From an uncultured Acidimicrobiaceae bacterium (GTDB taxonomy: Bacteria > Actinomycetota > Acidimicrobiia > Acidimicrobiales > RAAP-2), in contig CAWCFG010000008.1 in the NCBI GenBank assembly GCA_963794875.1, forward strand, positions 872-64,871: a stretch of 64,000 bases of DNA. Reading direction: 5' to 3'. The position numbers were made by a program, and so were the translations under genes. Below the pieces are notes generated by a model that made no database searches, was not told the origin of the DNA, and saw only the letters and a list, made by a program, of their open reading frames with translations. This document shows, one piece after another, positions 1 to 36,360 of this stretch; the first letter of the stretch is position 1, and each line of letters opens with the position of its first letter.

Positions 1-168
1 TTCGCGAAGTTTGGCAAGGTGCTTCGTCTGATGGAGGAGCGCAAGCACCTCACGGTTTCCGGTTTGATTGAAATCGGGGAAATAGCGCAGACGATGAATC
101 ATCAAAAGCCATCTGAAGTCCTGAGAATCCTCAGAGACCAAACGCCGACCACCTCACAGGAAATATAG
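1..168 (+). CDS. Intron-encoded LAGLIDADG-type homing endonuclease, C-terminal 55 codons only (5' partial)
   Basis: Frame 1 is open from base 1 to TAG at 166-168: FAKFGKVLRLMEERKHLTVSGLIEIGEIAQTMNHQKPSEVLRILRDQTPTTSQEI. The KHLTxxGLxxIxxIxxxMN and SExxRxxxD pattern matches C-termini of rRNA-intron LAGLIDADG enzymes (I-CreI-like) as I remember them. The ORF runs into the intron core and stops in the P8 loop. Confidence 0.55.
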   Translation, partial: FAKFGKVLRLMEERKHLTVSGLIEIGEIAQTMNHQKPSEVLRILRDQTPTTSQEI

Positions 169-285
169 GTAGTCCCTGTGAGATGAAGTTATGGTCCGGT
201 CCCTACGGCGACGTAGGGAGATCAGCGGAAACGACTGGTCCGCTAATCACTCGAATAACTTTGAGTGATTGGTTGTAACAGCTTG
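1..285 (+). mobile_element. Group I intron, 3' part (5' end outside window), inserted after the equivalent of E. coli 23S U1931
   Basis: Non-rRNA sequence runs up to G285 and is followed by exon agcgaaattcc (A1932 onward by my own count from helix 69). Group I core elements are present: R-like cctcagagaccaaac (128-142), S-like gaagttatggtcc (185-197), P8 hairpin ctcacagg/cctgtgag (153-182), and a GCGA-tetraloop hairpin ccctacg-gcga-cgtaggg (201-218). The terminal nucleotide is G. Confidence 0.75.
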
Positions 286-4728: not shown

Positions 4729-4799
4729 CAGCTGTATAGACCCACTAGACACCTAGTGGGTCTGTACAGTCCCCCGCAGCTTCGCCGGTCGCCGGTCGT

Positions 4800-6138
4800 T
4801 CAGGGCGCCGGCGCCGCCGGAACAGTCGTCGCGGTCGCTGGAGCCACTGGTGCAGTGGTCGTCGTCGCCGGGGGAGCGGTGGTCGTCGTCGTGGTCGTGG
4901 GTGGCGGTGCGGTCCCGAGGTCCGGTCCGATCACCGTCACCAGGGTGCCGATCGGTGTGAGCGGCCAGACCAGCGCCGCGTTGGCGTAGCTCATCTCGAC
5001 GCAGCCGTTGCTCTGGGGGGTCCCGTAGGAGGACCGGATGAAGCCGTGCAACGCATCGCCGCCGTTGAAGTAACTGGCGTAGGGGACGTTGGGGTCGTCG
5101 TAGGTGGAGCCGTCGACGTTGGTCCCCTTCATTTCCGAGTACCGCACGTGCTCGAAGACGGCGTAGGTGCCGTCGGTGGTGTCGGCGCCGGGCGCGCCGC
5201 TGTTGATCGGCACGGTGTACTGGACCGTCCCGTTGTTCCAGAGGGTCAGGGTTTGGGGGACCACTTTGTTCACGAGGACGTAGACGTAGGGCGTAGCGCT
5301 CGGCTTGTTGTTGATGACGTCGTTGAGCAGTGAGGTCCAGACGGTGGGGCCGGGGATCCCGTCCACGCCGATGCTGTTCTGGGTCTCGAAGGCCTCGACC
5401 GCGGCCTTGGTGATCTGGTTCATGGTGCCCTGGGTCCACTGCGAGGTGAGCTGTGTCGGCAGGTTGGGCCAGCGCCAGGTGAAGGCGCCCGCCTGGTCCT
5501 CTGCCAGGTCGGCATTGGTGGGAGCCGGGCCGCTGGGGGAGAAGCGCGACCGGCAGGTAGTCGAGCTGGGCCAGGAGCTGTTGGAGCCGGAGGGCATCGC
5601 CGGCCGCCACCTCGAAGGCCACCGAATGCGAGGAAGGCAGTGTGGCTCCGCCCGTCGACTGCAGCCCGTTCGTCCCGCCGGGGATGGTCACCACGACCTG
5701 GGAGGAGGGGATGAGGGGGGAGTCGAGGGCGTAGGTCAGGGTGGTGGCGCTCGTCTGGACCCACTTGCCGGCGATGGCGGGTGTCAGCGTCGGCGCCGCT
5801 TTCTTCAGCGAGACCGGGGCCGAGAATTGCAGCGAGATGCTTGTGTTCGCCGCCACGTTCTGCGTCCCCGCTGCGGGGGTGGTGGACTTCAAGAAGAACG
5901 AGGCCGAGCTCGCGCCACCGGAGCCCTTTGCTGCCGCGCCAGACCCGTTCGCGCTCGAGGCGCTCGTGGGGCCCGACTGCTTCGGTGTGGACCCACTGGT
6001 GACAATGAGCGCCACCACGATGACCACGACGACCGTCGCCGCGCCGACCACGAGCACCCACAGGCGCAGAAGCAACGGCCGGCCGGCCCGGGACTCGAGA
6101 ACGTTCATGGCCTCCACTTGCTCAAGACGTCGCCTCAC
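4800..6138 (-). pseudogene. L,D-transpeptidase (YkuD domain) with N-terminal TM anchor, split by a 1-nt frameshift near 5547
   Basis: The N-terminal part lies in ORF 4753..6138 (TM segment, Ig-like region, LRLQQLLAQLDYLPV). The C-terminal part lies in ORF 4800..5597 (FSPSGPAPTNADL...HGFIRSSYGTPQSNGCVEM, the catalytic H/C motif). Confidence 0.8.
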
Positions 6139-32196: not shown

Positions 32197-32390
32197 CCGG
32201 AGCGCCAGAGTCCCCGCAGCACGCAGTCGAGGGGACGCCGGAGGAGCAACTCTCCCCGAGAAACTCTCAGGCCGACATACCGCTTCGGTGAGGCAACTCT
32301 GGAAAGCGGATGCCTTTTGGTCCGCACCGAAGGTGGAAGCCGTGTGCAGGGCACGGTGAGGCTCTCAGGTCCAGTGACAGAGCGGGGAGG
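32197..32390 (+). ncRNA. Tandem glycine riboswitch (two aptamers)
   Basis: Aptamer 1: cggagcgccagag...gacgccggaggagcaa...ctctcaggccgaca. Aptamer 2: ctctggaaag...gcaccgaaggtggaag...ctctcaggtccagtgacagag. Both match the gcvT-motif consensus (CUCUGGAGAG...ACCGAAGGGGCAA...CUCAGG), and the element lies directly upstream of gcvP. Confidence 0.85.
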
Positions 32391-36241: not shown

Positions 36242-36247
36242 GCCGCC

Positions 36248-36300
36248 GCTCAGGAGCCATCAGCCATGTCGGTTCGGCGGTTCAGGGCATCGCCCCCCGG
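36248..36300 (-). ncRNA. Fluoride riboswitch (crcB motif)
   Basis: The minus strand reads ggggcgatgccctgaaccgccgaaccgacatggctgatggctcctgag. This matches GGCGAUG...AACCGCC...CUGAUGnnUCCU as I recall it, and it lies immediately upstream of crcB. Confidence 0.75.
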
Positions 36301-36360
36301 CGGGACCCATCGCCGGCGCAACGATCGTAGCCACCGACGCGCCCCGCGCCCGGCATCTCC

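Follow-up and report, generated by a model that had tools for sequence, protein, structure and literature searches.

The first 285 nucleotides of the DNA analysed here, a stretch of 64,000 nucleotides from an uncultured Acidimicrobiaceae bacterium (the window), are very probably the 3' end of an L1931 group I intron that carries a LAGLIDADG_1 endonuclease gene in its P6 loop and resides in an Acidimicrobiaceae-like host. The element is a known kind of mobile element at a known site; the host lineage is new, the mechanism is not. To our knowledge, the group I introns of bacterial rRNA genes had long been regarded as restricted to a few thermophiles and intracellular bacteria and, more recently, the CPR. 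With a 22-nt degenerate core pattern applied to species-representative genomes, we found at least 119 species-level genomes with the L1931 intron family, almost exclusively MAGs of soil Acidimicrobiia, and located both exon borders in 107 of these stretches. Judged by comparison of these sequences, the L1931 family in Acidimicrobiia is made of genuine group I introns, of which the window carries the last 285 nt of one copy.

The insertion site was placed with the rrlH gene of E. coli K-12, which is the reference for the E. coli numbering used here. In rrlH, the string CCTAAGGT terminates at U1931 and AGCG begins at 1932. BLAST of rrlH against the window aligns positions 286-958 with E. coli 1932-2604 and positions 1240-1517 with E. 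coli 2605-2884, and the 3' exon of the 23S rRNA resumes with agcgaaattcc at window position 286, equivalent to E. coli 1932. Hence A1932 is the base that immediately follows the insertion, which belongs to the L1931 site class, that of insertions between positions 1931 and 1932 of the E. coli 23S rRNA. The initial annotation had reached the same site, with a 5' exon ending in U1931, by counting from helix 69; the alignment gives A1932 as well, and base 285, where the non-rRNA stretch was said to end, is indeed a G. The RF02541 match spans positions 1-1536, of which 1-285 are not rRNA, and a 5S rRNA lies at 1642-1758. Alignment to complete relatives of 776-783 nt puts window base 1 at intron position ~493-495. 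The intron region of the window is 90-93% identical to those of loci L121, L001 and L032, and its exons are 97-99% identical to those of Acidimicrobiia/Acidimicrobiaceae MAGs. The intron, its open reading frame and the adjoining exon are as follows.

1-285, + strand: group I intron, last 285 nt (about 37%) of ~780 nt (exon resumes at 286; alignment to relatives)
1-168, + strand: 3' end of a single-motif LAGLIDADG ORF, 55 codons and the stop TAG at 166-168, residues ~121-175 of ~175 aa (translation; phmmer; relatives)
286-958, + strand: 23S rRNA exon, E. coli 1932-2604 (rrlH BLAST, 79.8% identity; RF02541 match)

The 3' half of the intron can be described as a series of group I core helices followed by two peripheral hairpins and a short tail.

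123-131, + strand: P6a'/P6' (GAGAAUCCU), the 3' strands that close the ORF-bearing P6 loop (P6 AGGA/UCCU and P6a in the RNAalifold consensus)
134-140, + strand: 5' strand of P7, with G134, bulged A135 and G136-A140 (pair counts in 104 relatives; single-sequence fold)
144-149, + strand: 3' strand of P3, GCCGAC, whose partner GUCGGC lies upstream of the window (29 of 29 ORF-less relatives; compensatory change)
150-185, + strand: P8 hairpin, 150-158 with 177-185, and its 18-nt loop 159-176 holding the ORF stop (covariation; Rfam alignment; single-sequence fold)
186-197, + strand: J8/7, AAGUUA, and the 3' strand of P7, UGGUCC (Rfam alignment to the conserved GAAGAUAUAGUC with high posterior probability; P7 pair counts)
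198-218, + strand: J7/9, GGU, which is the P9.0 partner, and the P9 hairpin, 201-207 with 212-218, with a GCGA loop (pair counts; J7/9 covariation)
221-273, + strand: P9.1, 221-227 with 232-239, with a GAAA loop, and P9.2, 242-252 with 263-273 (covariation; single-sequence fold)
274-285, + strand: 3' tail UGUAACAGCUUG, whose last base, G285, is the terminal guanosine and marks the 3' splice site (GTAACAG motif and a variable tail of 4-6 nt in relatives)

RF00028, the model with which the initial annotation had proposed to verify the intron, was run on the window with permissive thresholds and matches positions 15-218 with 42.4 bits (E 4e-9). This is below the gathering score of 50 bits, because this copy lacks the 5' half and the model has to be aligned across the ORF. 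Its best-aligned part starts at about base 120 and comprises J6/7-P7, P3', P8, J8/7, P7' and P9. ORF-less relatives of the window intron score 60.1, 57.0 and 56.5 bits, all above 50. Folded alone, the segment 121-285 forms P7, P8, P9 and two more hairpins, with an energy of -65.8 kcal/mol and a z of -6.25 against shuffles.

Covariation was followed in an alignment of the 3' part of 104 distinct relatives and in an RNAalifold consensus of 29 ORF-less relatives. The five predicted pairs of P7 are formed in all 104 relatives; among its single pairs, one is G-C in 103 and G-U in 1, another is A-U in 81 and G-U in 23, and a third is C-G in 104. G136 pairs with C196, and this is the predicted guanosine-binding pair, which we take to be the counterpart of G264-C311 in Tetrahymena. 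P8 shows compensatory changes at several pairs, one position being AU in 56 relatives, GC in 22, GU in 12 and CG in 8. The pairs of P9 are kept in 102-104 of the 104 relatives, with UA-to-CG and CG-to-UA changes, and P9.1 covaries in the same alignment. The consensus of the 29 ORF-less relatives recovers P9.2 and P4-P6, has a covarying P2, and contains a P1 in which exon GGU and intron AG pair with CUGCC, the U1931-G wobble being present in 29 of 29. P3 also forms in all 29, with the compensatory change CGGC:GCCG (58 copies) to TGGC:GCCA (11 copies). The guide sequence GCTGCC is found in 89 of 106 relatives, and exon AGC, which follows G285, can pair with GCU of the guide GCUGCC known from the relatives. 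P3, P7, P8, P9 and the guanosine-binding G-C pair are thus all recovered, with their 3' strands or hairpins at 134-218 of the window. Taken with the match of the partial copy and the ORF-less relatives above threshold, the covarying 3' half bears out the original assignment to group I.

Frame 1 of the window is open from base 1 to the TAG at 166-168, as first annotated, and encodes the 55 residues FAKFGKVLRLMEERKHLTVSGLIEIGEIAQTMNHQKPSEVLRILRDQTPTTSQEI. An open frame of 55 codons is expected by chance with a probability of (61/64)^55 ~ 0.07 and is weak evidence alone; the significance of the ORF comes from its homology and not from its length. With the 55 residues as query, phmmer finds 57 PDB chains under E 10, nearly all of them LAGLIDADG endonucleases aligned over their C-terminal (or domain-terminal) helices, the best being I-OnuI variants with E 4e-6. 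The alignment pairs residues 3-34 of the fragment with the final ~32 residues of I-OnuI-type chains, with E 4e-6 to 1e-4, and I-PanMI is also matched. The fragment is therefore homologous to the C-terminal helices of solved LAGLIDADG enzymes, the likeness noted in the initial annotation. The window codons keep the conserved residues KHLT..GL..I..I..TMN and have neither stop nor frameshift. In a large protein collection the ORF tail has 27 homologues (P0001-P0027, E 2e-22 to 1.5e-7), all of them 42-97 aa long. Gene callers systematically under-call intron ORFs inside rRNA genes; P0005, for example, lies on the contig of L039, where the genomic frame has ~175 codons. Longer frames, of which only pieces were called, explain why the database homologues are short.

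In the genomic relatives, the frame equivalent to that of the window runs on upstream into a full PF00961 (LAGLIDADG_1) domain, which spans residues 22-127 of 175 and scores 83.2 and 78.2 bits in the two full-length proteins searched (cut-off 23.1). The initial annotation had named both PF00961 and PF14528 as candidate families. PF00961 was recovered in these full-length relatives; PF14528 had no match in the relatives' proteins, and Pfam and NCBIfam gave no LAGLIDADG match on the 55-residue fragment. The fragment escapes Pfam because the PF00961 model ends ~7 residues into the window. That the open frame and its LAGLIDADG resemblance are chance features of a structured non-coding RNA might be argued from the ~7% expectation and from this missing family match; the PDB alignments and the upstream continuation into PF00961 refute it, and we give this reading practically no weight. 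The relatives carry the motif GW(I/V)xGFVDGEGCF upstream of the part equivalent to the window, as a single motif. Single-domain LAGLIDADG proteins are expected to act as homodimers, and the product of the ORF, with one LAGLIDADG domain, is probably a homodimer too.

The coding sequence and the ribozyme overlap, as the initial annotation had it. The P6 loop accommodates the bulk of the ORF, whose last ~15 codons (LRILRDQTPTTSQ..), from about base 121, double as P6', P7, P3' and the 5' strand of P8, with the stop inside the P8 loop. In the relatives, the first ~15 codons (..ADNQQERL) double as P4' and P6. ORF-less copies keep the flanking codons and still encode ...PSEVLRILRDQTPT..., and several retain ..PSEVLRILRDQ..; such copies therefore arose by deletion from introns with an ORF. 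From GAGAATCC (base 123) on, the ORF-less copy L087 hardly differs from the window, and the two part at the very point where the ORF body starts.

Among the matches listed, the 107 copies with both borders comprise 45 with an intact ORF, 32 with a disrupted ORF and 30 without ORF, a mixture as expected for the gain-and-decay cycle of a homing endonuclease. The intact ORFs have ~165-180 codons from the start codon through the motif to the stop equivalent to that of the window. In the ~780-nt class, 43 of the 59 listed copies are intact. Over window positions 1-122, the closest relatives among the matches listed are L121 (95.9% identical, frameshifted), L001 (90.2%, frameshifted) and L090 (88.5%, intact). 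Locus L035, on the reverse strand, has an exon that reads CCTAGGT for CCTAAGGT, with one A missing, and further single-base indels in its intron and ORF. Since this exon is universally conserved, some of the disruptions are likely assembly indels of long-read MAGs, and such indels likely inflate the count of disrupted genes.

These counts bear on the state of the gene in the window. A sub-case of the reading as an L1931 intron with its endonuclease gene is that this gene is decaying, with a frameshift or truncation in the part that precedes the window; the intron would then splice and no longer be mobile. The two nearest listed relatives, L121 and L001, are both frameshifted, L032, L017 and L030 of the same clade are disrupted too, 32 of the 77 listed ORF-bearing copies are disrupted, and L087 has wholly lost the ORF despite a nearly identical 3' half of the ribozyme. 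Against this stand the uninterrupted 55 codons of the window with their conserved residues, the large intact share of the listed long-class copies and the probable assembly indels among the relatives' disruptions. We give decay a substantial chance, a little under even, and estimate from the relatives that the odds of an intact gene in this copy are even or slightly better.

A terminal guanosine is near-universal in group I introns. In the window copy, G285 directly precedes A286, and the P9.0 pairing, with UU facing GGU, is weak. With exon borders kept constant, 105 listed relatives have A (56), G (30), C (13) or T (6) as the final base of the intron; in the class with a short 3' region (704-720 nt), 15 of 18 copies end in G. 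Most listed L1931 relatives thus lack a terminal G though the guanosine-binding pair (103 of 104), the guide and P9.0 are kept, while the window copy has one. The end of J7/9 covaries with the dinucleotide just ahead of that final base (GU:AC 20, AG:CU 17, GA:UC 13, GG:CC 9), and both P9.0 pairs form in 66 of 105 copies, compared with 21.5 +/- 3.7 in shuffles. Because the covarying pairs are at the position expected for P9.0, the splice register seems right. Neighbouring L1923-type introns, in genomes shared with L1931 relatives, always end in G.

Two other registers were considered and rejected. A 5' exon ...GGUAG with a 3' exon CGAAAUU (site 1933) would make all copies end in G. As a general explanation it fails: it fits only 80 of the 107 listed copies, namely those beginning with AG, it places P9.0 two bases off the terminal G, and it loses the U-G wobble at the cleavage site. 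An AG start showed no association with a missing terminal G (19/29 vs 61/78). The other register takes the G of the conserved GTAACAG as terminal guanosine and leaves an insertion of 4-6 nt in the rRNA; the P9.0 covariation falls downstream of that G.

If the rRNA genes in question are functional, the clade may ligate its exons with a terminal base other than G, or shift the register, or tolerate unspliced or unligated 23S rRNA; we regard this as a tentative and rather unlikely proposal. Were it true, G and non-G states could be compared inside one clade, with the window copy representing G. A further alternative is that the insertion is not self-spliced at all, being either retained in the mature 23S rRNA or excised without ligation like an intervening sequence, which would leave a fragmented rRNA. 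That G is the last base in only 30 of the 105 listed relatives suggests a relaxed or altered chemistry of the second step, and an unspliced L1931 intron is reported for Simkania in the title of Everett et al. 1999, as cited in PMC1995217. However, the window copy ends in the canonical G285, the rRNA around site 1931 is universally conserved, and the guide, the guanosine-binding pair, P3, P7, P8 and P9.0 are kept with compensatory changes in ~100 species, which argues for selection on ribozyme function. We consider an absence of self-splicing quite improbable, and retain the reading as a spliced L1931 group I intron.

For such an intron, the 5' part missing from the window can be modelled on the complete relatives. 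It would contain a P1 of exon GGU and intron AG with the guide GCUGCC and the U1931-G wobble, then P2 and P3-P6, together with the N-terminal two thirds of the ORF, including the GFVDGEG catalytic motif. The sequence expected upstream is ...ACGGTCCTAAGGT, followed by a P1/P2 of the AGAATTCCC type, the GCTGCC guide and P3-P6. The intron would be transcribed within the pre-23S rRNA, and by established group I chemistry an external guanosine would attack after U1931. G285 would then dock in the P7 pocket, and U1931 would be joined to A1932, giving a junction in which ...CCUAAGGU is followed directly by AGCGAAAUU. Homing would start with a cut by the putative endonuclease in intron-less 23S rDNA near 1931, for instance within CGGTCCTAAGGTAGCGAAATTCC, and repair of the break would insert a copy of the intron.

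Single-motif LAGLIDADG genes within L1931 introns have previously been described in Thermotoga, Simkania and Synechococcus (Haugen et al. 2007, PMC1995217, Table 1), which agrees with the initial annotation, where the first two were named as users of this site. The introns of that study, which include Synechococcus C9, S. lividus C1 and copies from green-algal and amoebal organelles, share their insertion site with the window element. In both groups the ORF runs from a peripheral loop into the core, and several introns are possible per 23S gene. The published introns are 654-700 nt long with single-motif ORFs of 143-167 aa, whereas the window family has ~780 nt and a single-motif ORF of ~175 aa. 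Compared by description, the Synechococcus intron is without P2, while the window family has a covarying hairpin between P1 and P3 and both P9.1 and P9.2. The host of the window family also differs, being Acidimicrobiia (Actinomycetota). In the literature library searched, no paper was found that links such introns to Acidimicrobiia.

In the CPR (Patescibacteria), group I introns encoding LAGLIDADG_1 proteins occupy 23S positions 1917, 1931, 1952, 2593, 2604 and 2657 (Tsurumaki et al. 2024, PMC11270868). Of these, the window has introns at 1931 and 2604. The CPR copies L082 and L091 match the core pattern; they are AT-rich and only distantly similar, and the window comes from a host outside the CPR. 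The title of Raghavan et al. 2007, as cited in PMC11270868, concerns the 23S introns Cbu.L1917 and Cbu.L1951 of Coxiella burnetii, one of which is without a terminal G. As far as that title goes, these introns are closely spaced in domain IV of a bacterial 23S rRNA and one of them lacks the canonical G, like most listed relatives of the window intron; they lie at other sites, and the window copy itself has the G.

For the protein, the best matches are the I-OnuI/I-PanMI family (PDB 3qqy, 5esp) and the 170-aa chain 5gkk_A, with 2e-45 for a full-length relative (that of L090, against I-PanMI) and 4e-6 for the window fragment. This family and the full-length relatives of the window ORF share the catalytic motif GFVDxEGCF with its Glu. 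I-OnuI-type enzymes are monomers of ~300 aa with two LAGLIDADG domains from fungal mitochondria, whereas the window protein, with its single domain, would need to form a dimer.

The listed genomes with matches are almost all Acidimicrobiia/Acidimicrobiaceae MAGs, with a few from other Actinomycetota (Nitriliruptorales, Euzebyales, Egibacteraceae, Thermoleophilia) and the two CPR genomes. Two cases of apparent spread across phyla were set aside as probable mis-binning and not horizontal transfer: the rRNA of L036 (Vulcanimicrobiaceae) is 96.3% identical to that of L115, and the rRNA of L031 (Gemmatimonadales) is 99.5% identical to that of L089.

The 23S genes of the family's Acidimicrobiia hosts often have several introns, at L1911, L1923, L1931, L2593 and L2604. 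The window itself has a second one.

959-1239, + strand: complete ORF-less group I intron of 281 nt, inserted after U2604 and ending in G1239 (RF00028, 71.6 bits; BLAST)

This L2604 intron is not found in the close relatives L087, L032 and L039 and is present in L017, L008 and L106; it is therefore polymorphic. In 13 of the 30 ORF-less loci (e.g. L021, L023, L041, L043, L094, L109), the sequence before CCTAAGGT reads ...GTAACAAA(A/T)GTG, which is not rRNA; judged by this flank, another group I intron terminates after U1923, so that the two introns are separated by an exon of 8 nt, CCUAAGGU. Locus L090 (2978-7706), from a single chromosome-level MAG record, has three large 23S insertions: one of ~460 nt near 1911-1913 (RF00028, 53.1 bits), the 779-nt L1931 intron and one of ~381 nt after 2593. 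At L121 (1-150), another intron ends just before A1912.

Other features were noticed elsewhere in the window. On the minus strand, the overlapping frames 4753-6138 and 4800-5597 each look protein-like by eye over part of their length, and the second has an L,D-transpeptidase-like ...SNGCVEM... motif, which suggests a frameshifted gene at 4753-6138 or an assembly indel. Two riboswitches were also found.

32289-32390, + strand: glycine riboswitch (52.8 bits)
36244-36323, - strand: fluoride riboswitch (34.4 bits, right at the gathering score of 34)

In practical terms, rRNA insertions of this kind break rRNA-based annotation, primers and binning. Intact, decaying and lost endonuclease genes occur together in one intron family of the Acidimicrobiia, and this makes the family a natural system for the turnover of introns and endonucleases in an essential gene.
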